Notes under the pieces: model-generated | Told to the model about the DNA's origin: nothing | The model's input: only the letters and a program-made list of their open reading frames with translations | Database searches by the model: none | Position numbers and translations under genes: made by a program | DNA from: an uncultured Acidobacteriota bacterium | GTDB taxonomy: Bacteria; Acidobacteriota; JAQAZP01 | Direction of reading: 5' to 3' | Length of the DNA stretch: 64,000 nucleotides | Assembly (NCBI GenBank): GCA_963836075.1 | Contig: CAWIIB010000009.1 | Coordinates: 960,001 to 1,024,000 of the forward strand | Shown here: positions 39,324-61,917 of the stretch, piece by piece | Numbering within the stretch: position 1 is the first letter of the stretch | Layout: the number at the start of each line of letters is the position of its first letter

Positions 39324-39364
39324 TCGATAGTTCCTCCAACTTGGTTGACAACATCCTCGGAGGG

Positions 39365-39434
39365 GGGACGTACATGAATATATGAATATTTGATTCTCCA
39401 GGAAATCAAATATTCATATATTCATGTACGTCCC
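39365..39434. mobile_element. 70-bp palindromic MITE/REPIN-like element, copy A
   Basis: GGGACGTACATGAATATATGAATATTTGA-N12-TCAAATATTCATATATTCATGTACGTCCC; the perfect symmetry extends to 39359..39440. Ends match the transposase TIRs. Confidence 0.85.
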
Positions 39435-40735
39435 CCCTCCTCCCCCTCCCCGCTCACCAGTTCGGCGATGGTGCGGCCCTGGAGGGAGCCGTGCCCGGCG
39501 GTTTGATAACCGGCCAGCACCAGGTCCGCGGTGCGGTCCAGCTCATCCTCCCGGTCGGCCCATCCGGCAACGTCACTGAACACGGCGCGGATCACCTCGG
39601 AGATGGTGATTTCACTCAGCGATCGCGAAGGGATCCACCCCTCGTTGCGGTTGCCTCCGGCCACCCGGCGCAGCAGGCCTGCGTCGTTCAGTAGGCTCAT
39701 CTGATCCTCCACCATCACCAGCGAGATTGAAAACTGCCCGGCCAGCTCGTCGGCGGAGGGCGGTGTCTCGCCGCGGTGGAAGGCGCTGGCGATGTGCAGG
39801 TAGAGGCGCAGAGTCAGAGACAACCGCCCGGCGATGTCTCTTTCGGCCAGGGCATGATTCCCGGCCAGGGCCGCGCGATACTGGTGGGTGTAGCTCACCT
39901 CGAGGCCGAAGAGGATAATCAGCCAGGTGATGTAAAGCCAGATGAGGAAGATGGGGATCACCGCCAGCGAGCCGTAGATCGCCGAGTAACGCACCGATTG
40001 GCCGATGGAGATGGCGAAGAGATATTTGCCCGCTTCCCACATGATGCCGGTGGTGAGAGCGCCGAAGAGGGCGCTGCGAAACCGCACCCTGGTGTAGGGG
40101 ATGATCTGGTACATCAGCAGGAAGGCGGCGAGGGAGAGGAGGAAGGGAACGAGCCAGGCGTAGACGGTGGAGAAGAACCCGGGGTCGATCCTCGTCCCGT
40201 TGATAATCATCGCCTTGATCTGTGCCGAGATGGAGACGCTGGCCCCGAGCAGGATGGTGCCGAAGACGAGCATCGAAGTGTAGGCAGTGAGCTTGCTGAT
40301 CACGCTGCGGCGGCTCCGCACGTGCCAGATCTCGTTGAAGTTCGATTCGATGTTGTCGAGGAGCAGGATCGCGGTGAAGAGCAGGGCGATGGAGCCCACT
40401 AGACTGAGGGTCCTGGCGTTGTCGGTGAACTGGTTGATATAGGTGACTATATCATCCTGATGGGCTGGGAGGAGGATGGAGAAGATCAGTTCCTGCACCG
40501 TTTCCCGGATTTCCTCGAAGGCGGGGAAGGCGGCGAAGATCGAGAAGAGCACCGCCACCAGCGGGACGATGGCCAGCAGGGTGGAGTAAGCCAGACCGGA
40601 TGCCCTGATCAGCAGTTTGTCCCGGCCGCACTGATCGAACAGCGCAAACAGGAGCCTGAGCAGACGGATGGGGAGATGAGCCCATCGGGGCAGTGACTCA
40701 TCGTCCAGCCGGTTGAGCCGTTCAGTGATAGTCAT
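39422..40735 (-). CDS. YihY/virulence factor BrkB-family inner-membrane protein with C-terminal HTH-like domain
   Basis: RASGLAYSTLLAIVP, IESNFNEIW and YSAIYGSLAVIPIFLIWLYITWLIILFG; the stop codon lies inside element A. Confidence 0.9.
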   Translation of the reverse strand: MTITERLNRLDDESLPRWAHLPIRLLRLLFALFDQCGRDKLLIRASGLAYSTLLAIVPLVAVLFSIFAAFPAFEEIRETVQELIFSILLPAHQDDIVTYINQFTDNARTLSLVGSIALLFTAILLLDNIESNFNEIWHVRSRRSVISKLTAYTSMLVFGTILLGASVSISAQIKAMIINGTRIDPGFFSTVYAWLVPFLLSLAAFLLMYQIIPYTRVRFRSALFGALTTGIMWEAGKYLFAISIGQSVRYSAIYGSLAVIPIFLIWLYITWLIILFGLEVSYTHQYRAALAGNHALAERDIAGRLSLTLRLYLHIASAFHRGETPPSADELAGQFSISLVMVEDQMSLLNDAGLLRRVAGGNRNEGWIPSRSLSEITISEVIRAVFSDVAGWADREDELDRTADLVLAGYQTAGHGSLQGRTIAELVSGEGEEGGRT

Positions 40736-40788
40736 CGCCTGATAATACCAGAGCGAGGGACCGCGTCCAACGGTGATCGGGATGATCG

Positions 40789-40858
40789 GGGACGTACATG
40801 AATATATGAATATTTGACTCTCTGGAAAATCAAATATTCATATATTCATGTACGTCCC
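40789..40858. mobile_element. 70-bp palindromic MITE/REPIN-like element, copy B
   Basis: The 29-bp arms are identical to copy A; the 12-nt spacer is CTCTCTGGAAAA versus TTCTCCAGGAAA. Confidence 0.85.
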
Positions 40859-41493
40859 TGCTTCTTGCCGAGAGCGATCACCAGGCCGGCGGTCAGCTCG
40901 CCCTGCCAGAGCACGTTGCCGCTGACGCCGAAAGTGCAGCCGCCCGGGTACCCGCCGCAGATCAGGGCGGAACCTGAAGCGAAGTAGGTGCCCAGCAACC
41001 GGCCCTCAAAGCGCACACCCACCCGCTCGGCAAACATCAACTTGACCCCGCCGCCCAGACCGAAGGAGAAACGGGTGGCCGAGCTCAGTCCGGCACCATC
41101 GGGATTGAAGTGGGTTGCGCCCAGCGTGCCCAGACCGTAGGGCACGATATTGTCGGTGTGGTCCCCGAAGGCCATCAGGCCGCCGATGTGGAAGTAGTCG
41201 ACTCCCAGGTCCAGGCGGCCCAGATCGGGGTTGGTGGTGTTCAGCTCGCTGTCCTGGTGGCTCCAGCGAAAGACGATCCAGGTTTCGTCATAGGGGTCCA
41301 GTTCGATATCGACGCCCAGGCCATAGGTCGGGGCGTCCTTCAGGTCGTATCGGTCACCATAGTAATAGTCCACCACCTCACCGCCGAAATGGTAGCCGTA
41401 GAATGGCAAGAGTTCCACCATGCCGGCCGTGGCAGGAGACGCTATTGCCATGGTTGCCAGCACCAGCAGGGCGCCGGTAGTGATTCGTGACAT
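40846..41493 (-). CDS. Outer-membrane beta-barrel protein
   Basis: Signal peptide, ELLPFYGYHFGG, GGGVKLMFAERVGVRFEGR; the stop codon lies inside element B. Confidence 0.82.
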   Translation of the reverse strand: MSRITTGALLVLATMAIASPATAGMVELLPFYGYHFGGEVVDYYYGDRYDLKDAPTYGLGVDIELDPYDETWIVFRWSHQDSELNTTNPDLGRLDLGVDYFHIGGLMAFGDHTDNIVPYGLGTLGATHFNPDGAGLSSATRFSFGLGGGVKLMFAERVGVRFEGRLLGTYFASGSALICGGYPGGCTFGVSGNVLWQGELTAGLVIALGKKQGRT

Positions 41494-51956: not shown

Positions 51957-54900
51957 GTGAAACGAAAGCTCCTTATCACGATCCTCGGTCTGCTGGCGGT
52001 GGTGATCATCGCCGCTGCGATTGCGGGGGTGACGGTCCATACCGATTCGTTTCGCAGCTGGTTCGAGGGGAAGCTGGAAACGGTTCTCACCGAGGCCACC
52101 GGGCGGCCGGTATCACTGCGGATCGTTGACCTGGCCCCCCTGCGGCTCCGGGCCGCCGTTGAAGATTTCACCATCGGCGGCGCGTCCCCGGACGCCCTGC
52201 CGCTGGTCTCGGCGGCCTCCATCGATCTCGATGCCAACTGGTCCGCTCTTTTACGCAAGCGGGCCGACCTCTCCTCGCTGACGGTGAACGGCCTGCGGGT
52301 GGACCTGGAACAGCTGCCCCTTGACCTGCCCGAAGAGGATACGGAGTCACCGCCCTTCTCCATCGCGGACTTCGTCGACCTGATCCTCGTCGACCGGCTG
52401 GAGGTGGAGGACGGCTGGCTCCACTTCGGCGGCGCCGACGTTCCGCTGGACATCCTGGCCGAGGGCGTTGCCCTCTCCGCCGACTTCCGCCGCCTGGGGC
52501 GCAGCTACCAGGGGACCCTGAGCGCCGGCGCCGGCGGCCTGAGCATCCCCGATGCCGGCGATTTCCCCGTCACGCTGCAGACCGGTTTCACCCTGGGGCC
52601 GGATACCGTCACCCTGACCGATATCCGGCTCAGCAGCACCGGCCTCTCGCTCAGCGGCAGCGGCGAGCTCACCGACTGGAACCTGCCCGCGTACCGGGCG
52701 ACCTTCGAGGCCGAGGTCGCCCCCGGCGAGCTGCCGGTGCCGGCCCTGGCCGAGCTGGAGCTCGGCGGGAGCGCCACGCTCGACGGCGACCTCGAGGGAA
52801 AGGGAGGTGATCTGCGGGTAACCGCGGCCATGACTTCCAGGCGGCTGGACCTGGCCTCGGTATCCGCCAGCGATATCTCCTGCCGGCTGGCGCTGGCGGA
52901 TGAGCAGTTCCGGGCCAGCGAGCTGCTGCTGGACATCCTCGGTGCGCGTGTAGAGGGCGAGCTGACCGCGGCGGTGGCCGGCATTGCCCCCTGGTCGGCC
53001 GACCTTCAATTGGCGTCCGACGATCCCGATCCCCTGGTCCGCTGGCTCTTTCCGGAATCACGGGCGGGAAGCCGGGGCTCGTTCGCCGGCAGCCTCGACA
53101 TCGGCGGGACGGCATTCGACCTGAAAGCGCTGGCCGGCACTCTGGCGGTGCGGACGGAAGATCTGGTGCTCGCCGATGCGCCGCAGTTCCCCATGACCCT
53201 CGATGCTGAAGCGGAATTCGACGGCGGCGCGGCAGATATCAGCCGGTTCACCCTGACCGGCCCGGGCGCCAGTATCGCCGGCAGCGGGACCCTGGCGCTG
53301 GACTCACCGTCCAGCATCGAGTTCAGCGCCGAGGTTGCACGCCTGGAGCCGCTGGACTCCGGTATCAACGCGGTGGCCGGATTGATGGGCGGAGCAGACG
53401 CCCTGCCGGAGGAACTGCTGCAGCTCCGCGGCCGTCTGCAGGTTGACGGTGAGCTCGGTGTACCGACGCTGAAGGGTTTCGACATGGAAACCCTCAGCGG
53501 CCGGCTGGACCTCGTTGCCGACAAGGTCACGCTGGCCGAAGCCCCGGAAACCGTGCTCGACGCCCGGATGGAGACCCGCTTTGCCGGTGGTCAGATCATC
53601 CTCGACCGGGCCCATGCAGAATCGGCTGGTGTGGAACTGGACGCCACGGGAGGGGTGGGGATGGCCGGGGCCTCCGGCCTTGGAATAAGGGCCACAGTGG
53701 CCAGGCTGGAGGAGAGTCTGCCCGCCCTGCGGCCGTTGCTGGCCGCGTTCGATCTGCCGGCCGACATTCTCGATCCTCTCTCGTCCCTTTCCGGCAGCTT
53801 GCTGTTTGATGCCCGCATTGACGGGGGCTGGAACGAACTGGACGGCACGGCGGAGCTGGCGGTGGACGAACTGGCCTCCGGCAAGCAGCCGCTGGGCCGG
53901 CTAATGGCCGAAGCCACCGCCCGCGGTGGGATGGTGGAGATGGCTGGAATACTGGACGGCGCCGGTGGCGGAATCGAGATCAGCGGGGCGGCGGACCTGG
54001 GCGCCGCGGACGGCATCCCCGCGCGTTTGGAAGTCCGGCTCGACGGGCTCTCCCTGGAACCGCTGCTCACCGCGGCCGGCCTGGACCTGCCGGTGAGCGG
54101 CCTCGTCGGCGGCGATGCGGTGGCCACCTTCCCCGGCCCCGAGGTCCAGGCCGATCTGGCCCTCGTTGACGGCGCCGCCGCCGGTATCCCGCTGGACTCG
54201 GTGACCTGCGAGCTGCTCCTGATCCCCGGGCGCCTCGAGGTGACCGGCGCCCGCGTGGCGGCGGCGGGCGGGGCGCTGTCGGTTTCCGGCGGGCTCGGTG
54301 CCGGCGGGTCGCTGGACGGGTTGTCCTTCAAGGGGGACGGATTCGAGCTGGGCCGGTTGGTCGAGACGCTGGAGACGCCGCTGGACCTGAACGGCCGCCT
54401 CTCCTTTTCCGGGTCGGTCACCGGCGCCCTCGAAGAGCCGCGGCTGGCGGCCTCGGTGGCCCTGAACGAGATGTCCTCCTCCGGCTTCACCGTGCCGGAA
54501 CTGGACGGCGACCTGTCACTGGACCCGGCTGGTGTCGAACTCCACCTGGCCTCGCCGGACGGCCTCAGTGTGGCCCGGCTCGAGTTCGGTTTCGGTGAGG
54601 GCGACCCCTGGATCGCCGAAGTGCGCTATCCCCTCCATCTCGACACCCGCCGGCCGCTGGAGGCCGGATTTGCTCCGGGCGGCTTCATCGCCGCTGGTGC
54701 GCTGAATGCCGCTTTCCGGTGGGTTGGCGACGAACTCTCGACCCTTGAAGGGGTGGCCCTCGTCGAGGGGGTTCGCCTCGAGGCCGATGGCCACCGGCTG
54801 GACGGGACCGGTCCCCTGCAGGTCCGCGTGGCCTCCGGCCGGGCCGTGATCGAGCCGTTCAGGCTGGAGGGGCCGGATACCGGCCTGGACGTCGAGGGGA

Positions 54901-57900
54901 GCATGACCCTGGCCGACTCCCCGGAGGCGGAAATCACCGCCCGGGGTACCGTCGATCTGGGCCTGCTCCGGGGGCTCGACGACCGGCTGCGCACCGAGGG
55001 ACAGGCCGAGTTCGACCTCATCGCCCGGGGGCCCGTGGCTGAACTGGCACTGGGGGGTGTGGTCCGGCTCCGCGAAGGGCGGCTGCGGCACCCCGATTTC
55101 CCGCTGGTGCTGGAGAAGATCGAAGCCGAAGCCGTGCTGCAGCCGGATCGCTGGCAGCTCAGCCGGCTGGAGATGACCGCCGGCGGTGGACAGGTCACCG
55201 GCAGCGGGGAAATGTCGATGGACGGCCTGCGGGTTGAAGCGCAACACTTCGAACTGACCGGGCGCGGGGTGCGCCTGGCCTATCCCGAAGGGTTCCGCTC
55301 GGAACTCGACGCCGATCTCATGCTGACCCGGGAGAATGGCGGGCCGGGCCGTCTTTCCGGGGAGGTCCGCATCATCGGCGGGCTCTACGACGAGGAGATC
55401 AACATCGAAAAACAGTTCCTCTCCCGCACCCGGGCGGCGGACCGGATCGCCAGCGTGGAGCCGGGCCTGCTGGACCGGGTGGCCCTGGACCTCCGGGTGA
55501 CCTCCGACGACGGCCTGTGGGTCAGGAACAACCTGGCCTCCATGGAGACCGGGGTCGCGCTGCAGATGAGGGGCACCTTCGGCACCCCCGACATCAGTGG
55601 CCGGGTGCAGGTGCTGGAGGGCGGGACGGTGACCTTCCGCGGTGTCGACTACAGCATCATCCGGGGGTCGATCGATTACCCCGGCGGGGCGTCCACCCCT
55701 CCGGAAGTGGACCTCCGGGCCGAGACCACTCGCTCCGACTACGATATCCAACTGGCCGTCACCGGCCCGCTGGAAAATCTCAAGTTCGATCTCAACTCCA
55801 CGCCACCCCTCTCCCAGACCGACATCGTCACCCTGCTGGTCACCGGCAAGACCAGGGACGAACTGGGCAGCGGCGGCGGCGGGCTCTCCGATGACCAGGC
55901 CACCATCTACCTCTCGGGCCGCCTGACCGACAGCCTCGCGCCGGCCCTGCAGCGGTCGCTGGGCCTCGACGAGGTGAGCGTCAACCCGGTGCTGATGGGC
56001 AGCCAGGCCGACCCCACGGCGCGGATCACGGTGGGCAAGTCGCTGACCCCGAGGCTTTTCGTCACCTACTCCAGCCTGATGGGCAGCGACCGCCAGGACA
56101 TATACCAGGCGAAATACCGGCTCACCGACCGGCTCAACCTGCTGGGCACCCGGGACGAGGACGGCTCGCTGGCCGGCGACGTGGTCTACCGGGCCCGTCT
56201 CTACCGCGGGCCGCCGCGGGAAGGGGAAACGGCAGGGGGCGGCGGGCAAAACGATCGGAAAATTTCACGGATCGAATTTCGCGGCAACCGGTTCGCCTCG
56301 GCCTTCAAACTCAGGAGGCAGCTTGGCGTGACCACCCGGGACCGCTATCATCGCTCGCGCCTGCTCGGCGGCCTGGAGCGCATTCGCGACTGGTACTACG
56401 CCAGGGGTTTCCCCGAGATCGAGGTGGAGCATCAAGTGATCGAAGACGAGGATACCGTCGACCTGGTGATCACCGTGGACGAGGGGCCGCAGGTGAAGAT
56501 CAGCCTGCCCGGGGCACCCCGGCCGCGGCGGCCGCTGCGCCGGGAGGTCTATCGCCTGTGGAGCCGCAGCATCTTCCGCGAGGACTTGCTGGAAGAGGGA
56601 GCCCGGCTGGTGCTCGGTTACCTGGGCGGCAGGGGATATATCCGGGCGACGGTGGATCCGTCACGGGAGGAACCGGAGCCGGGCCTGGAGGAGGTCGTCT
56701 TCCGGGTGGACCGGGGAGAGCGGGTCAGGGTTGACGAGCTCCACTTCACGGGAATCCACGGCGTGGAGGAGAAAAACGTCCGCTCGCGGATGCTGACCAG
56801 GGAGGCCGGCCTGCTGGCGCGCGAGGGATTCAGCCCTCGCACGCTCGACGATGACCTGGAGGCGATTCGGAACTATTACGCCACCCTCGGTTTCCTCGAT
56901 GCAGCGGTGAAGAGCCGCGTCGAGGACCTGCCGGGCGGCAAGCGGGTGGTGGTCACGGTGGAGATCGAGGAGGGCGAGCGCTACCGCCTGGGCCCGGTCG
57001 GGTTCAGCGGCAACGAGGCCTTCACCGCCGAAGCGCTCCTCGCCGAGACGGGCCTGCAGGCCGGCTCCCCGTTCAACGACGAGGAGGTCCGCCAGGCCGA
57101 GCGGAAGCTGGCCGTGCTCTATGACCGCCAGGGGTACGGCGGCGCGGCTGTCCGTTCCGGCCTGCGCATCGACCGGGAAAGTATGGTGGTTGATGTCGCC
57201 TTCGAGGTGGAGGAGGGCTCGAAACTGGTGGTGGAGGCGGTGGAGGTCGTCTCCCCCGGCATCACCAACCCGGAGATCATCCGCAGGGAGCTGGAACTGT
57301 GGGCCGGCCAGCCGCTGAGCAACCGCCAGGCCGGCCGCAGCCAGTACAACCTCTACCGCACCGGCCTCTTCCGCAGTGTGGGCTACGAGATTCTGCCCGG
57401 AGACACCCCGGAGGGGCGCCGTGTGGTCTTCACCGTGGACGAGAGCCCGAACCTCCACTTCGATTACGGGATCGGGTACAACTCCGATTTCGGCATGCGG
57501 GTCAGCGGCAACGTGGCCCACAACAACTTCATGGGCCGGGGGCTCTATGTCGGACTGGGCGGGCGGTACGGCGGAGACGACAGCCGGGCCCAGTTCGTGG
57601 TGCGCAATCCGCGGCTGTGGGGCAGCGAGGTCGAGGGGCTGGTCCGGGCCTACTGGGAGGAGGAGGACCGGGTGAGCTACGACGCCACGCGGCTGGGCGG
57701 CGTCCTGCAGAGCACCAGGCGTTATCACGACGGGCGCTACACCCTGATCGGGGGTTACGGGCTGGAGGATCTGACCACCGCCCGCAAGGGGCTGGATGAG
57801 CTTCCCGGTTCGCCTTCAGACCAGAGCGTCGACCCGCTCATCGACCCCCGGGTGGAGACCGAGGTCCGCCTGGGCAGTCTGCGGCTGGACGGGGCCCGGG

Positions 57901-58487
57901 ACAGCAGGGACGCCTTCCTCTGGCCCACCAGCGGCTCCTTCACCCGTGCCGAACTGGGCGTTTACGACCAGGCCCTGCTGTCCGAGGCGGAGTATCTTCG
58001 CGGATTCTTCCAGTGGAATATCTACCAGACGCTATTCCGCTCGGCGGTCTGGATCAGCTCCGTCCGCCTGGGGCTGGCCCAGCCTTACGGCAACACGGAG
58101 TTCTTGCCGATCAGCGAGCGCTTCTTCACCGGCGGGGAGAGCAGTCTTCGCGGGTTCAAATACGACACCCTGCCGGCGGTGGGCGCCCCGTACCTGCCGG
58201 GCGTCGAGAGCGACACGTCCACCGGCGGTAACGCCCTCTTCCTCTTCAACCAGGAACTGACGGTGCCGGTGGCCGACCCGATCCACCTGCTGATCTTCTA
58301 CGATGCCGGCAACCTCTACTGGAAGGTCAGCGACTTCGACATCACCGACCTCCGCCAATCGGCCGGCCTGGGAATCCGCATCAGGACCCCGGTTGGACCC
58401 CTGCGCCTGGAATACGGTTGGAAACTCGATCGCGAGGAGGGCGAGTCCTCCGGCCGCCTCCACTTCAGTTTCGGCATGCCGTTCTGA
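51957..58487 (+). CDS. TamB/AsmA-like domain fused to POTRA repeats and Omp85 (BamA/TamA) barrel, 2176 aa
   Basis: Uninterrupted ORF: N-terminal TM, AsmA-like beta repeats, DUF490 end (STPPLSQTDIVTLL, ITVGKSLT.RL.VTYS), several POTRA units, ERFFTGG..SLRGF and GPLRLEYG...FSFGMPF. Confidence 0.9.
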   Translation: MKRKLLITILGLLAVVIIAAAIAGVTVHTDSFRSWFEGKLETVLTEATGRPVSLRIVDLAPLRLRAAVEDFTIGGASPDALPLVSAASIDLDANWSALLRKRADLSSLTVNGLRVDLEQLPLDLPEEDTESPPFSIADFVDLILVDRLEVEDGWLHFGGADVPLDILAEGVALSADFRRLGRSYQGTLSAGAGGLSIPDAGDFPVTLQTGFTLGPDTVTLTDIRLSSTGLSLSGSGELTDWNLPAYRATFEAEVAPGELPVPALAELELGGSATLDGDLEGKGGDLRVTAAMTSRRLDLASVSASDISCRLALADEQFRASELLLDILGARVEGELTAAVAGIAPWSADLQLASDDPDPLVRWLFPESRAGSRGSFAGSLDIGGTAFDLKALAGTLAVRTEDLVLADAPQFPMTLDAEAEFDGGAADISRFTLTGPGASIAGSGTLALDSPSSIEFSAEVARLEPLDSGINAVAGLMGGADALPEELLQLRGRLQVDGELGVPTLKGFDMETLSGRLDLVADKVTLAEAPETVLDARMETRFAGGQIILDRAHAESAGVELDATGGVGMAGASGLGIRATVARLEESLPALRPLLAAFDLPADILDPLSSLSGSLLFDARIDGGWNELDGTAELAVDELASGKQPLGRLMAEATARGGMVEMAGILDGAGGGIEISGAADLGAADGIPARLEVRLDGLSLEPLLTAAGLDLPVSGLVGGDAVATFPGPEVQADLALVDGAAAGIPLDSVTCELLLIPGRLEVTGARVAAAGGALSVSGGLGAGGSLDGLSFKGDGFELGRLVETLETPLDLNGRLSFSGSVTGALEEPRLAASVALNEMSSSGFTVPELDGDLSLDPAGVELHLASPDGLSVARLEFGFGEGDPWIAEVRYPLHLDTRRPLEAGFAPGGFIAAGALNAAFRWVGDELSTLEGVALVEGVRLEADGHRLDGTGPLQVRVASGRAVIEPFRLEGPDTGLDVEGSMTLADSPEAEITARGTVDLGLLRGLDDRLRTEGQAEFDLIARGPVAELALGGVVRLREGRLRHPDFPLVLEKIEAEAVLQPDRWQLSRLEMTAGGGQVTGSGEMSMDGLRVEAQHFELTGRGVRLAYPEGFRSELDADLMLTRENGGPGRLSGEVRIIGGLYDEEINIEKQFLSRTRAADRIASVEPGLLDRVALDLRVTSDDGLWVRNNLASMETGVALQMRGTFGTPDISGRVQVLEGGTVTFRGVDYSIIRGSIDYPGGASTPPEVDLRAETTRSDYDIQLAVTGPLENLKFDLNSTPPLSQTDIVTLLVTGKTRDELGSGGGGLSDDQATIYLSGRLTDSLAPALQRSLGLDEVSVNPVLMGSQADPTARITVGKSLTPRLFVTYSSLMGSDRQDIYQAKYRLTDRLNLLGTRDEDGSLAGDVVYRARLYRGPPREGETAGGGGQNDRKISRIEFRGNRFASAFKLRRQLGVTTRDRYHRSRLLGGLERIRDWYYARGFPEIEVEHQVIEDEDTVDLVITVDEGPQVKISLPGAPRPRRPLRREVYRLWSRSIFREDLLEEGARLVLGYLGGRGYIRATVDPSREEPEPGLEEVVFRVDRGERVRVDELHFTGIHGVEEKNVRSRMLTREAGLLAREGFSPRTLDDDLEAIRNYYATLGFLDAAVKSRVEDLPGGKRVVVTVEIEEGERYRLGPVGFSGNEAFTAEALLAETGLQAGSPFNDEEVRQAERKLAVLYDRQGYGGAAVRSGLRIDRESMVVDVAFEVEEGSKLVVEAVEVVSPGITNPEIIRRELELWAGQPLSNRQAGRSQYNLYRTGLFRSVGYEILPGDTPEGRRVVFTVDESPNLHFDYGIGYNSDFGMRVSGNVAHNNFMGRGLYVGLGGRYGGDDSRAQFVVRNPRLWGSEVEGLVRAYWEEEDRVSYDATRLGGVLQSTRRYHDGRYTLIGGYGLEDLTTARKGLDELPGSPSDQSVDPLIDPRVETEVRLGSLRLDGARDSRDAFLWPTSGSFTRAELGVYDQALLSEAEYLRGFFQWNIYQTLFRSAVWISSVRLGLAQPYGNTEFLPISERFFTGGESSLRGFKYDTLPAVGAPYLPGVESDTSTGGNALFLFNQELTVPVADPIHLLIFYDAGNLYWKVSDFDITDLRQSAGLGIRIRTPVGPLRLEYGWKLDREEGESSGRLHFSFGMPF

Positions 58488-58498
58488 TTCAGGATTCA

Positions 58499-58563
58499 GG
58501 GACGTACATGAATATATGAATTTCTTCTCCACCGCCCCATATTTCATGAGGGACGAACATGAA
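58499..58563. repeat. Half element plus degenerate second end of the GGGACGTACATGAA repeat family
   Basis: GGGACGTACATGAATATATGAAT at 58499..58521 and GGGACGAACATGAA at 58550..58563. Confidence 0.8.
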
Positions 58564-58661: not shown

Positions 58662-59561
58662 ATGCACTCCATGCGCTTTTCTTGTTCAAGAATGGCATTT
58701 AACTCTCTCCACCTGTCATTTCGCACCGTCATCCCGACGTTACTGATCTGTCTCCTCCCCTTTACACCTATCACCTTGGCCCAGGAGTTTGGTCGGGACC
58801 TGGGAGAGCAAGAGGACCGGGTGAACTACGCATTTTCGGCCTACCTGGGCAGCGGCATTTATGCCGCATCGGATGGGGCCGTGCAGGTCTACAGCCTTCC
58901 CCTCGCCTATACGCTCCGGCCGCCGTCCGAGAGGCGCCCTGGAATCAGATTGAAGTTCCCGGTGACGTTGGGTTTTTACGACTTCAAGGCGCTGGATCTG
59001 ATCGAGGGCACCCTGCCCGACGATGTGGCCACCATCAGCGTTATCCCCGGCGCTGAGTTTCTCTTCCCCGTGAGGGAGAATTGGTCGCTGACACCGTTTG
59101 TCGACCTTGGTGCGGGGATGGATATATCCAGCGGTCACACGACCTGGATCTGGTCCACGGGTGTGAACAGCCTGGCAGTATTTTCGGGAGACCGTCTGGA
59201 AACGACGCTCGGCAACAAACTGCAGTATGCTGCGTACAATTCCCCGGGGGAGGACGACAAGGGGAAATTCTTTGTTTTCGAGACCGGGCTGGATCTGATG
59301 CGTCCGCTGAGAGTATCGACCAGCAGCCGGATCAACCGCTTCAGCCTCTACCTTATGAACCAGGTCTATTTCAATGGGCTCGAATTGCTCAGCTATCGAG
59401 AAAATCTTCTTGAAGTGCAGTACCAGTATGAAGTGGGTTTCACCTATGTCCCTCATAAACCGTTCAAGTTATGGTTGCTCAACGTGCCCCGGATCGGTCT
59501 GGGCTACCGCTTTGGCGATGGCTTAACCGCCTTCCGCCTCGTCCTCAGCATGCCATTCTGA
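58662..59561 (+). CDS. Putative outer-membrane beta-barrel protein
   Basis: Signal-like N-terminus, NYAFSAYLGSGIY and RIGLGYRFGDG...LSMPF; start codon uncertain. Confidence 0.7.
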   Translation: MHSMRFSCSRMAFNSLHLSFRTVIPTLLICLLPFTPITLAQEFGRDLGEQEDRVNYAFSAYLGSGIYAASDGAVQVYSLPLAYTLRPPSERRPGIRLKFPVTLGFYDFKALDLIEGTLPDDVATISVIPGAEFLFPVRENWSLTPFVDLGAGMDISSGHTTWIWSTGVNSLAVFSGDRLETTLGNKLQYAAYNSPGEDDKGKFFVFETGLDLMRPLRVSTSSRINRFSLYLMNQVYFNGLELLSYRENLLEVQYQYEVGFTYVPHKPFKLWLLNVPRIGLGYRFGDGLTAFRLVLSMPF

Positions 59562-59565
59562 TGTA

Positions 59566-60754
59566 GGGGACGTACATGAATTTATGACTTTTTCATTTCC
59601 AGAAGAAATGAATGTAAATAGTTCCAACCACAAATTGGCGGCATCTGGTTACCTTTGGTAATTGAAAATCAAAACTCCATGCCTCGCACTGCCAGAATTG
59701 ACTATCCGGGCGCACTTCACCATGTCATTGCCCGAGGCCTGAACAGGCAGGCCATTTTTCTGGATGATAACGATCGGGACCGGTTTCTCGATCGGCTCGG
59801 CACCATTCTCACCAGGACCGAAACGTCCTGTTACGCCTGGGCGCTGATGCCGAACCACTTTCACCTGGTACTGATCACCGCAGAGGTCCCGATTTCGACC
59901 GTGATGCAAAAGCTATTGACCAGCCATGCTGTGTATTTCAACAAACGGCATGACCGGTGCGGCCACCTGTTCCAAAACAGATTCAAGTCGATTCTCTGCC
60001 AGGAGGACGCCTACCTCCTGGAACTGGTCCGCTATATTCACTTGAATCCGCTGAGGGGGGAATTGGTAGAGGATCTGCGTGAACTGGAATTATTTCCCTA
60101 CTGCGGGCACGGCGCTGTCCTTGGTCGATGCTCCCACTCCTGGCAGGATACTCGGTACGTGCTGCGACTGTTCCACCATGAAAAGCTGGAGGCACAGACC
60201 CTTTACAGAGTATTCATCAAGGATGGACTCTCCGCAGGCAAAAGGAACGATCTGGTGGAAGGCAATTTGGTCCGTCGCAATGGAGAATGGTCAGCGGTGG
60301 ATCCCCAAAACAGCTCACCATCATGGGTTTACAGTGAACGAATCCTTGGTGACGATGACTTTATTAAACGTGTGCTCAATCGGTCAAACGAATTACGGAA
60401 TAGCGAGAAAGGGACCGCTGCCCAAGAATACGATTTCAATGCGGCGGTAAAGAAGGTCGCCGCCTGGTTTGGATTAAAATCAGAGGATGTTCTTTCCTTG
60501 AGGAGGGACCATCTGGCAGCGAGAGCGCGAAGTCTGCTTTGTTATCTGGTCACCAGCGAATTGGGCATGAGTCAGGCCTTTCTGGCCCGGGACCTTGGGC
60601 TAACACAATCAGCGATCTCAAGGGCAATCCAGCGTGGATCCGAACAGGCAAAGACAGGGGGATATTCGCTACTCCTAGAACGGTAGTTCTCCTTGATATC
60701 TCAAACTACCCTCTTCGTGAACAATAAAAAATTCATAAATTCATGTACGTCCCC
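59566..60754 (+). mobile_element. 1189-bp element: Y1 HUH nuclease gene between perfect 22-bp terminal inverted repeats
   Basis: GGGGACGTACATGAATTTATGA (59566..59587) and TCATAAATTCATGTACGTCCCC (60733..60754); no flanking direct repeat; more AT-rich than its surroundings. Confidence 0.85.
59679..60686 (+). CDS. REP-associated / IS200-like Y1 tyrosine (HUH) transposase with C-terminal HTH (DnaA_C/TrpR-like)
   Basis: MPRTARIDYPGALHHVIARG..RQAIF, LMPNHFHL (HUH), GHLFQNRFKS, RYIHLNP (catalytic Tyr) and C-terminal SQAFLARDLGLTQSAISRAI. Confidence 0.9.
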   Translation: MPRTARIDYPGALHHVIARGLNRQAIFLDDNDRDRFLDRLGTILTRTETSCYAWALMPNHFHLVLITAEVPISTVMQKLLTSHAVYFNKRHDRCGHLFQNRFKSILCQEDAYLLELVRYIHLNPLRGELVEDLRELELFPYCGHGAVLGRCSHSWQDTRYVLRLFHHEKLEAQTLYRVFIKDGLSAGKRNDLVEGNLVRRNGEWSAVDPQNSSPSWVYSERILGDDDFIKRVLNRSNELRNSEKGTAAQEYDFNAAVKKVAAWFGLKSEDVLSLRRDHLAARARSLLCYLVTSELGMSQAFLARDLGLTQSAISRAIQRGSEQAKTGGYSLLLER

Positions 60755-60822
60755 GTTCCGCGGTCTGTCCCTATAACTCCCTAGCAGGAGGCGGTATAAT
60801 TCCGGGCAGGAGGGATCAAGGT

Positions 60823-61917
60823 TTGATTGGTTCGAATAGCAGGCGGCTCATCGGACTGGTGTGCTTCGTGATCCTGGCGTCGGTGTCGCTGCTCCACGCC
60901 GGGCCGAAAACGGACACGGTGGTGCTGGCTAACGGCGACCGGATCACCGGGGAGATCAAGGCCCTGGACCGCGGCCGGCTGACTTACTCCACCGACGACA
61001 TGAAGACCATCTATATCGATTGGGTCAAGATCGTCCGGGTGGAGAGCCCGAACCTCTTCGAAATCGAAACGGAGGGCTTCAAACGGCTGTTCGGCAGCCT
61101 CACCAACTCCGGCGAGGACGGCTGGATAGTAATCTCCAGCGGGGAGGCTGCCTACACCCAGCGCATCGATCGGGTGGTCCGCATTACCCCGCTCAAGGGC
61201 AGCTTCTGGAGCCGGCTGAAGATCCTTCTGGACGTGGGGTACAACTACATCAGCGCCGACAATCAGCAGACGTTCACCCTGGGCAGTGAGATCAGTTCCC
61301 GGACCGAGAAAACACTTCGGACGTTGACGTTGAGTTCCTTCATGACCAGCCGGACGGACAATCCGAGCACCGCCCGGTCCCTGGCCACGTTCTCCAACAA
61401 ACGTTTTTTCGAGGATCAGCCGAGGCTCTATTTTGTCTGGCTGGCGAGCGTCGAGCAGAATGACGAGCTGGGCCTGGATCACCGGTATACGGCAGGCTCG
61501 GCCATCGGCCGCCACTTTGTCCAGACCAACATGATCCTGCTGGGGTTGAATGCAGGGCTGTCGGTCTCCCAGGAATCGTTCACCGGGACATCGGACTGGG
61601 ATCTGGACTGGAATAGCGGTGAGGTAAATGCCACCGATGACTACAACCTGGACGTGTTCCTGAGTGCCGATTTTTCGGCGGCCAGGTGGCACGGCAACGA
61701 TCTCGATTTCACCATGACCCTGGCCGTCTTTCCCTCCCTTACCAACGGGGGCCGTATCAGAGGACGGGTGGACAGCCGCCTCAGCTATGAAATCTTCAGC
61801 AATTTCTACTTTGGAATTTCGGGGTTCACGGATTACGACAGCAAACCGCCGGTGGAGGGGGTCGAGCTGTTCGACATCAGTGCCGCGCTCACCGTGGGGT
61901 GGTACTTCAACAAGTAG
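60823..61917 (+). CDS. DUF481-domain outer-membrane protein
   Basis: Signal peptide, KTDTVVLANGDRITGEIK, DYDSKPP and LTVGWYF. Confidence 0.78.
   Translation: MIGSNSRRLIGLVCFVILASVSLLHAGPKTDTVVLANGDRITGEIKALDRGRLTYSTDDMKTIYIDWVKIVRVESPNLFEIETEGFKRLFGSLTNSGEDGWIVISSGEAAYTQRIDRVVRITPLKGSFWSRLKILLDVGYNYISADNQQTFTLGSEISSRTEKTLRTLTLSSFMTSRTDNPSTARSLATFSNKRFFEDQPRLYFVWLASVEQNDELGLDHRYTAGSAIGRHFVQTNMILLGLNAGLSVSQESFTGTSDWDLDWNSGEVNATDDYNLDVFLSADFSAARWHGNDLDFTMTLAVFPSLTNGGRIRGRVDSRLSYEIFSNFYFGISGFTDYDSKPPVEGVELFDISAALTVGWYFNK

Follow-up and report, generated by a model that had tools for sequence, protein, structure and literature searches.

We analysed a stretch of 64,000 nt (the window) from the 6.2-Mb genome of an uncultured Acidobacteriota bacterium (genome G000, contig C9, positions 960001-1024000). 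At 59566-60754 it carries a 1189-bp unit in which a 335-aa open reading frame (ORF) stands between inverted repeats. This unit is a TIRtron and its gene a TIRYT, of TnpA_REP subclass 2.1 and, as judged from domain architecture and flanks, presumably of subgroup 2.1.2. The class has already been described, including dispersed dimers of its terminal inverted repeats (TIRs), and the unit is a genuine, well-preserved member, here resident and accompanied by a REPIN-like population. Very probably, the gene is vertically inherited and behaves like the RAYT of a REPIN-RAYT system, with ∼28 cognate doublets (pairs of inverted ends) and 8 further doublets from two related word families. What appears to be new, on comparative grounds, is the anatomy of the ends over 139 elements, a head followed by two words, together with the covariation of these words with residues 310 and 315 of the protein.

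Inverted-repeat-flanked RAYT-like genes were named TIRYTs, and the units TIRtrons, by Di Nocera, De Gregorio & Rocco (2013, PMC3733652). The accessible text of that paper reports a GGGGWSAS tip at some TIRYT ends and moderately abundant TIR families with a dimer organisation in a few genomes. According to the accessible text of Quentin (2018, PMC6006769), most TIRYTs form TnpA_REP subclass 2.1, no REP-like sequences occur near subclass 2.1 genes, and the tails of subgroup 2.1.2 are similar to Bac_DnaA_C, HTH_23 or HTH_28; that the tail recognises the ends is doubted there because GGGGWSAS is unlike the DnaA box. A literature search for TIRYT/TIRtron, or for Y1_Tnp combined with Bac_DnaA_C, returned only these two papers, neither of them experimental in its accessible text.

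The gene unit and its ends

The sequence-only reading of this stretch had described a RAYT/IS200-like Y1 HUH gene with an extra C-terminal helix-turn-helix (HTH), GGGG-tipped inverted repeats and no target-site duplication, and the sequence, a repeat search and Pfam bear this out. The two arms are 32 nt each, 94% complementary (30/32, from the repeat search and the sequence) and 1125 nt apart; their outermost 22 nt, GGGGACGTACATGAATTTATGA, match perfectly. The flanks of the unit (..TGATGTA / GTTCCGCG..) show no direct repeat, and therefore there is no target-site duplication. The gene thus has terminal inverted repeats instead of REP hairpins on both sides, and as single-stranded DNA neither end folds alone (z −1.3 and +0.4 versus shuffles). 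The unit starts 5 nt past the stop of the upstream ORF, and the distance from the left end to the ATG is 112 nt, both here and in G002, a genome of the same genus. Each end consists of a 10-nt head and two 8-mers, which we call words. The left end reads ATGAATTT ATGACTTT, and the internal 8-bp tandem noted previously is seen at the right end and in most copies, which read ATGAAT[A/T]T ATGAATxT. A simple sigma-70 scan of 59400-60900 gave no promoter-like site on the gene's strand in the left end. The features of the unit are as follows.

59566-59597, + strand: left terminal inverted repeat, from the repeat search; anatomy common to 139 homologous elements
59566-59575, + strand: left-end 10-nt head, GGGGACGTAC
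59576-59583, + strand: left-end word 1, ATGAATTT
59584-59591, + strand: left-end word 2, ATGACTTT; a weaker match after word 2
59679-60686, + strand: TIRYT-type Y1 HUH tyrosine nuclease/transposase gene, 335 aa, stop included
59856-59864, + strand: codons of the HUH motif H60-F61-H62; H60 and H62 invariant in 25 homologs
60033-60035, + strand: codon of Y119 (RYIHLNP), candidate catalytic tyrosine, invariant in 25 homologs
60432-60659, + strand: C-terminal DnaA-domain-IV-like HTH, aa 252-327, from profile, model and fold search
60606-60608 and 60621-60623, + strand: codons of Q310 and R315 in the predicted recognition helix (∼aa 308-320)
60723-60754, − strand: right terminal inverted repeat, head + ATGAATTT ATGAATTT
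60755-60772, − strand: degenerate extra head AGGGACAG.. directly outside the right end; similar extras in many homolog loci

The encoded protein

The start codon is the ATG and not the upstream TTG at 59655, because the N-terminus MPRTARID is conserved. Pfam recognises Y1_Tnp at aa 14-121 (9e-11) and, under the gathering score, Bac_DnaA_C at aa 257-318 (1.4e-4). Across 25 aligned homologs (50-100% identity), H60 and H62 (within NHFHL) and Y119 are invariant, and the spacing of Y119 after the HUH motif matches that of Y1 enzymes, which makes it the candidate catalytic tyrosine. The AlphaFold2 model (mean pLDDT 72) has a confident Y1 domain at aa 13-126, a helical extension at 127-188, an unconfident linker at 189-251 and a confident HTH domain at 252-327.

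The best Foldseek match in the PDB is 4ER8, the Escherichia coli TnpA_REP on a REP hairpin (E 3.4e-6, TMt 0.72), followed by the TnpA proteins of ISDra2 and IS608. In a fold comparison of the model, the C-terminal domain fits DnaA domain IV in its complexes with DNA (1J1V and 3PVP), with an rmsd of 1.9-2.2 Å over 75 columns. A search of PDB sequences with the family profile matched Aquifex DnaA (E 6e-4); it found the DnaA-like part and not the Y1 domain, and the fold search recovered both.

A population of hairpin-forming doublets

With up to two mismatches, GGGACGTACATGAA has 9 matches within the window versus 0.31 expected, and none of 100 shuffles reaches 9. The matches include the two ends of the unit, two palindromes of ∼72 nt, a solo end at 58498 and a 2-mismatch match at 2960, the last likely due to chance. 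The end sequence had been said to recur as two palindromes ∼20 kb away and near 58499, and these copies lie at 39364-39435, 40788-40859 and 58498. Genome-wide, GGACGTACAT occurs 76 times versus ∼8 expected from base composition, and the 15-mer has 62 matches whereas the reversed control pattern has none.

Pairing of heads in G000 gave 38 pairs, namely the gene unit, a pair at C1:1531513 that looks like chance, and 36 inverted doublets. In a doublet the two ends stand head-out around a loop of a few to ∼130 nt. The gene's own words (ATGAAT[A/T]T ATGA[A/C]T) are present in 28 of them, ATAAAAAGTATAA in 5 and ATAAGxTTATAACTT in 3. The head GGGGACGTACAT is common to the 36, with one B-type doublet (C9:2569697) reading GGGGACGTAGAT instead. 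The non-coding derivatives built of two ends that the sequence-only reading had supposed do therefore exist, and a count of single and double copies gives ∼12 solo ends, recognisable by eye in the head-pairing output, beside the 36 doublets.

As single-stranded DNA, the doublets form perfect hairpins of 30-33 bp (−30 to −35 kcal/mol, z ∼−14), with 0/200 shuffles as good. The palindrome is longer by two bases (TC/GGGG...CCCC/GA) in roughly one third of them, and no target duplication was found at the doublets identified in G000. With crude ORF calls (≥90 aa, GC3 ≥0.74), 20 of 35 doublet sites lie ≤22 nt from the end of a stop codon, and at 29 of 35 one or more neighbouring 3′ ends face the doublet. 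Two doublets of the window bracket a BrkB/YihY-family gene (39422-40735, minus strand) with an Rrf2-like tail.

39364-39435: doublet with an 8-nt loop, 33-bp DNA hairpin (fold −34.8 kcal/mol, z −14.3)
40788-40859: sister doublet with nearly the same loop
58498-58521, + strand: solo end AGGGACGTACATGAATATATGAAT, 11 nt past the stop of a TamB-Omp85 fusion, orthologous in G002
58549-58563: degenerate second head near the solo end, in direct orientation

The gene is probably resident

A tblastn search of G000 found one full copy of the gene and one 35%-identical paralog on contig C1. In G002, 11.8 kb are colinear with the window and an intact, 72%-identical ortholog lies at the same place. Between the two genomes, the gene has a synonymous divergence (dS) of 0.92 and a dN/dS of 0.19, and three neighbouring genes have a dS of 0.57-0.90 and a dN/dS of 0.20-0.27. 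Since the ortholog is syntenic and both values are like those of the neighbours, the gene has been in place since the species split, under purifying selection. The description 'autonomous element' given earlier is not upheld for this copy, which is single, syntenic in G002 and as diverged as its neighbours; it resembles a RAYT-type gene that stays in place and is inherited vertically, not a jumping insertion sequence (IS). Among relatives, 13 of 31 have a match (a tally that includes G025).

A second reading takes the TIR-gene-TIR unit of 1189 bp for a currently active, autonomous insertion sequence and the doublets for its internally deleted derivatives, that is, miniature inverted-repeat transposable elements. 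The intact ORF, the near-perfect ends and the doublet arms, which equal the unit's left or right end, agree with it. In other hosts, moreover, the family is multi-copy: four large Desulfobacterota genomes reached via homolog loci contain 7-16 matches each. Desulfosarcina alkanivorans has four TIR-gene-TIR units of 1094 bp with 0-2 base differences and different outer flanks, and the TIRYT family as such can thus move as a whole unit. No doublets of its own unit's end were found in D. alkanivorans, and G031 lacks both extra copies and doublets of the tested end. However, in G000 the gene is present in a single full copy, it occupies the same position in G002 with a dS like that of neighbouring genes, and the left end in G002 is degenerate (GGGGATGTAATTG...), with two end copies on the right side. 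No empty site for the gene unit was found either; at the G001 locus (a second congener), homology ends at the TamB-like stop and unrelated DNA lies beyond. We consider an active insertion sequence unlikely at this locus.

Two candidate junctions in the reads were rejected as excision products. The joint 59595->60727, with a 32-nt insert and sides of 29 nt, looks like a relative's doublet of the C9:1303864 type mapping onto both ends; the joint 40815->60726 also has sides of only 29 nt.

Doublets are copied and apparently replaced

Four pairs of near-identical doublets, loops included, have unrelated flanks, and each pair stands around one ordinary gene. Shared loops together with unrelated flanks indicate that whole doublets were copied. 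In the window, the pair encloses the gene of the BrkB/YihY family; for the three other pairs, inspection by eye gave a rubrerythrin-like ORF, a putative lipoprotein and a large secreted repeat protein. The comparison of related genomes for empty sites, proposed earlier, was fruitful for the doublets, whose sites differ in occupancy from one congener to another: two sites that hold a doublet in G001 and/or G002 lack one in G000, where they measure 26 and 37 nt. At six orthologous sites the word families differ between species, and G001 has nested doublets there; at site 2, the inner doublet of G001 and the single doublet of G000 have the same loop. This suggests insertion into or beside existing hairpins and replacement over time.

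C9:781012-781847, C9:933945-934941, C1:1846042-1849585: further sister-doublet pairs in G000
C9:1538978, C1:1442655, C9:933945, C9:2993298, C9:554356, C9:801560: the six orthologous sites in G000
L123, L126-L128, L137, L143, L144, L152, L156: ortholog loci of the six sites

The nesting in G001 consists of a TTGCGT-type arm pair around an inner doublet, and C9:1217674-1217867 in G000 is nested too. In G002, the ortholog is accompanied by three doublets of TTGCGT/ATGCGT type that match its own ends.

The segment 39364-40859 was considered as a doublet-gene-doublet cassette, and composite transposition is unproven: the slot in G002 holds an unrelated 316-aa ORF, which was not found in G000, and the yihY-like gene of G002 lies elsewhere. 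The arrangement suggests a variable slot.

The doublets might instead be structural or regulatory palindromes selected by the host, such as terminators or mRNA-stabilising hairpins, in a genome whose TIRYT gene no longer mobilises anything. Their location next to stop codons and 3′ ends would suit such a role, as would the conservation of many sites in three species of the genus and the presence of repeats in G001, where the gene was not detected. Position after stop codons is, however, also typical of REP/REPIN elements. Furthermore, the arms equal the gene's own ends over ∼30 nt, orthologous sites hold different word families or nested copies and no conserved sequence, sister copies stand at unrelated sites, and the gene is under purifying selection with the HUH motif and the tyrosine intact. 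On this evidence, a purely host-selected origin is very doubtful.

Several observations nevertheless weigh against a resident gene with a REPIN-like population of its own. G001 has 26 matches of the ATGAAT repeat and no ortholog found with this query, in an assembly of 380 contigs that is 91% complete. The two related word families (8 doublets in G000, ∼14 ATAACT doublets in G002) have no cognate gene. A BLAST comparison of 36 G001/G002 loci with G000 showed many doublet sites to be orthologous across the genus; most doublets are thus old, and current activity is hence unproven. No excision junction was found in public reads, where all 20 matching datasets are contig-only DNA metagenomes with ≤0.43 of words and none is an RNA run. 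The protein reaches 64 bits with the NCBIfam model REP_Tyr_transpos (NF047646), whose cut-off is 80. Finally, the tip here, GGGGACGT, agrees at 6/8 positions with the GGGGWSAS that the accessible text on TIRYTs reports for some ends.

End anatomy across homologs

Homologous loci were taken from species genomes, mostly metagenome-assembled genomes of Desulfobacterota (80 loci), and from metagenomes (80 loci). With the window's own unit included, 139 elements were used, those whose left head could be recognised at 50-120 nt ahead of the ATG. We dropped L043 (no canonical left end), L071 (no tandem word) and, from the metagenome set, 5 short proteins as well as 8 loci that lacked a left head, 4 of which had <51 nt of upstream flank. 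The left head lies 56-58 nt upstream of the ATG in 100 of the 139, and the right head mostly 15-30 nt past the stop. An exact-seed search for inverted repeats in the 69 loci with adequate flanks gave a head-containing repeat in 52, chance-level repeats only in 4 and none in 13, several of which have mismatched heads on both sides. The consensus end is [G/A]GGGACG followed by 3 variable bases, an 8-mer and a similar second 8-mer. Positions 2-7 hardly vary (entropy ≤0.15 bit), and the words differ by lineage.

Directly beyond an end, many homolog loci also show short tandem arrays of additional heads (GGGGACGNNN) that lack words. Each of the four copies in D. alkanivorans has, outside the GGGAC head, a 9-nt motif that is repeated 1-3 times, GAAAGTTAG at the left and TAAGGTTCC at the right. 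In many left ends, word 2 is immediately followed by TTGAC(A), ∼33 nt before the ATG; in a subgroup whose head is 51-54 nt upstream, TTGAC(A) stands in place of word 2. It may be the −35 box of a short-leader or leaderless transcript.

L010, L023-L027, L031, L050, L058, L059, L069, L078 (left or right flanks), and L238-L241: loci with such repeats outside an end
L003, L004, L030, L062 (examples), and L204-L232: loci with TTGAC(A) after or in place of word 2

Covariation of the HTH domain with the words

Mutual information (MI) with average product correction (APC) was calculated over the 139 elements between well-filled protein columns and the first 36 end positions (∼12,000 pairs). The comparison of TIRs with the HTH domain in homologs, which had been proposed as a check, placed the strongest protein-DNA signal at two residues of the predicted recognition helix. 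Of the top five pairs, two involve residue 310 (end positions 19 and 11) and three residue 315 (positions 13, 21 and 23); the partners are the first, third and fifth bases of both words, 8 nt apart. Gln310 goes with A19 in 71 of 78 elements (non-Gln, 4/61) and Arg315 with G21 in 18 of 18 (non-Arg, 6/121). The six non-Arg elements with G21 all have Lys and the 'word' TTGACAT, which may be a −35-like box. Lys315 goes with C23 in 29 of 31 elements and Leu315 with G23 in 18 of 18. Gln-adenine and Arg-guanine are classical major-groove pairings.

When the set was reduced to 39 representatives of <65% identity (residues 1-245), the same four pairs were the top of 11,952, with scores of 0.58, 0.49, 0.44 and 0.41; over 30 label shuffles, the maximum averaged 0.39 and reached 0.51 at most. 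When the profile is aligned to Aquifex DnaA, R315 is matched with the His of the helix-5 motif TTVIHA, and Q310 lies a few residues upstream in that helix, beside a one-residue gap; the correspondence of these residues to E. coli DnaA numbers is tentative. Helix 5 of DnaA makes base-specific contacts at E. coli residues 432-435 and 438-439, according to the accessible part of the source (PMC5043019).

Other results count against this interpretation. Among the 39 representatives, only the top MI pair lies above all 30 shuffles. Phylogeny is weakly controlled for: R315 and the word pattern xTG each change five times on a quick tree of residues 1-245, and the independent pairs amount to one on well-supported branches and five on all branches; with one supported pair, no significance is possible in a tree-based test. 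The simple word rules were framed after the first locus set had been seen, and the second set, from metagenomes, is not independent because it comes from the same clades. Among its 67 loci, the post-hoc rule R -> xTG was obeyed by 6/6, though from the clades already seen, and xTG also occurred in 6/61 non-R rows, all with K and with TTGACAT as second word. Three other rules were dropped on these loci, namely K -> ACT (7/14), E <-> GG (no E rows and two Q rows with GG) and Q -> TTGA (few rows), and the Q310 and R315 associations are the ones kept. Given the post-hoc rules, the shared clades and the single supported independent pair, we conclude that the HTH likely reads the words and go no further. 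The proposal of the sequence-only reading that the HTH recognises the tandem is supported insofar as residues 310 and 315 covary with both 8-mers, a comparative signal whose phylogenetic control is weak.

Alternatively, the C-terminal domain might not read the ends at all, and either target replication forks or origins, as Quentin suggested in 2018, or autoregulate the left-end promoter only. According to the accessible text of that paper, GGGGWSAS is unlike the DnaA box (PMC6006769), and the −35-like TTGAC right after word 2 in many homolog left ends would suit autoregulation. Yet the words are found at both ends and in the doublets, not just upstream of the gene, and the covariation falls on the recognition helix and on both words in register. 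A function of the HTH away from the ends thus seems improbable.

If the HTH does read the words, end recognition in TIRYTs could be modular, unlike that of the Y1 transposases studied, with the near-universal GGGGACG head used by the HUH domain and the duplex 8-bp words by the HTH through a residue-base code. We give this model about an even chance. The code would be Gln310-A at word position 1, Arg315-G at position 3, and Lys315-C or Leu315-G at position 5.

A weaker signal than that of the HTH concerns the 3 variable bases after GGGGACG (end positions 8-10), whose top covariation is with residues 216-218 and D29 (APC-MI ∼0.3). Residues 216-218 belong to the low-confidence linker, just before a conserved ERILGD.

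Comparison with known systems

The unit shares with TIRtrons, as the accessible texts describe them, a RAYT-like Y1 HUH gene that is longer than classical RAYTs and has a C-terminal HTH, GGGG-tipped inverted repeats instead of REP hairpins, and TIR dimers in some genomes. It differs in the distance of 112 nt between left end and ATG, versus 56-58 nt in most of its relatives, and, from the descriptions in these texts, in the sizeable doublet population beside a single gene copy. The accessible text on TIRtrons and subclass 2.1 makes no mention of the head+8-mer+8-mer anatomy or of covariation with the HTH, although figures or supplements may show tandem words.

RAYTs are resident and vertically inherited, unlike insertion sequences, as stated in the accessible text of Bertels (2017, PMC5581495). 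As in the REPIN-RAYT systems so described, a single-copy, vertically inherited Y1 gene is flanked here by a repeat that it presumably disperses; the repeat is over-represented genome-wide, and the doublets are long extragenic hairpins without target duplication that persist over species-level divergence. In the two congeners compared, the gene is syntenic in G002 and many doublet sites are orthologous. In contrast to REPIN-RAYT systems, there is no GTAG-tagged REP, a single end is neither a palindrome nor a hairpin and only the doublet folds, the enzyme has an HTH domain, the population is small (tens versus hundreds), and the protein falls below the cut-off of the NCBIfam RAYT model as given above.

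With the TnpA proteins of the IS200/IS605 family (IS608, ISDra2; PDB 2VJV, 2XMA and others), the protein shares the Y1 HUH fold (TMt 0.55-0.65), the HUH motif with one tyrosine, and the absence of target duplication. Those elements, however, have different subterminal hairpins at each end that are recognised on one strand, with no inverted repeats and no HTH, whereas the ends here are inverted repeats that do not fold alone. In the model, the C-terminal 75 residues are similar to DnaA domain IV (1J1V, 3PVP; ∼2 Å), but the target words (ATGAATTT and similar) bear no relation to the DnaA box, and the fusion partner of the domain is a nuclease instead of an AAA+ initiator.

Outside the window, G000 has a second TIRtron (C1:1546264-1547260), which encodes the paralog, a 293-aa protein with a C-terminal HTH that is 35% identical to the TIRYT over aa 1-184. 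Its own inverted repeats start with GGGGTCAGG, and its tip GGGGTCAG fits GGGGWSAS in full. About 6-7 small palindromes of the form TGTCACTTTT..GGxCC..AAAAGTGACA are found elsewhere in G000.

Proposed mechanism and implications

A doublet that becomes single-stranded in replication would fold into a hairpin of 30-33 bp. The HTH would then bind the two tandem 8-bp words, either in the duplex stem of the hairpin or in the double-stranded ends of the gene unit, and so provide specificity, and the HUH/Tyr119 domain would nick at or near the conserved GGGGACG head, forming a 5′-phosphotyrosine link. The strand would finally be rejoined elsewhere with no target duplication. The cleavage site and the strandedness are inferred, and so would be any present activity of the enzyme.

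TIRYTs and TIRtrons are abundant, 7,984 of 8,000 scored candidates having matched at E ≤ 0.001. This locus represents the 'domesticated RAYT plus hairpin population' end of the range of the class, and its relatives the 'multi-copy IS' end. Through the covariation, the question raised in 2018, whether the DnaA-like tail reads the ends, becomes testable at the bench with named residues and bases. If it does, TIRYTs would offer a compact nuclease that takes its DNA specificity from a small HTH, and a natural system for the replacement of repeat families at fixed genomic sites. Under the modular code, should it be true, one or two residue changes in the helix would re-target an element, which would explain how many lineages, and several word families within one genus, coexist without cross-mobilisation and how new families overwrite orthologous sites.

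A neighbouring gene

The solo end at 58498 follows a 2176-aa ORF (51957-58487, + strand) that joins AsmA/DUF748-like, TamB, three POTRA and Omp85 segments in one polypeptide, apparently as a TamB-TamA fusion. G002 conserves its C-terminal 499 aa, and its 3′ 2 kb have 79% DNA identity with G001.

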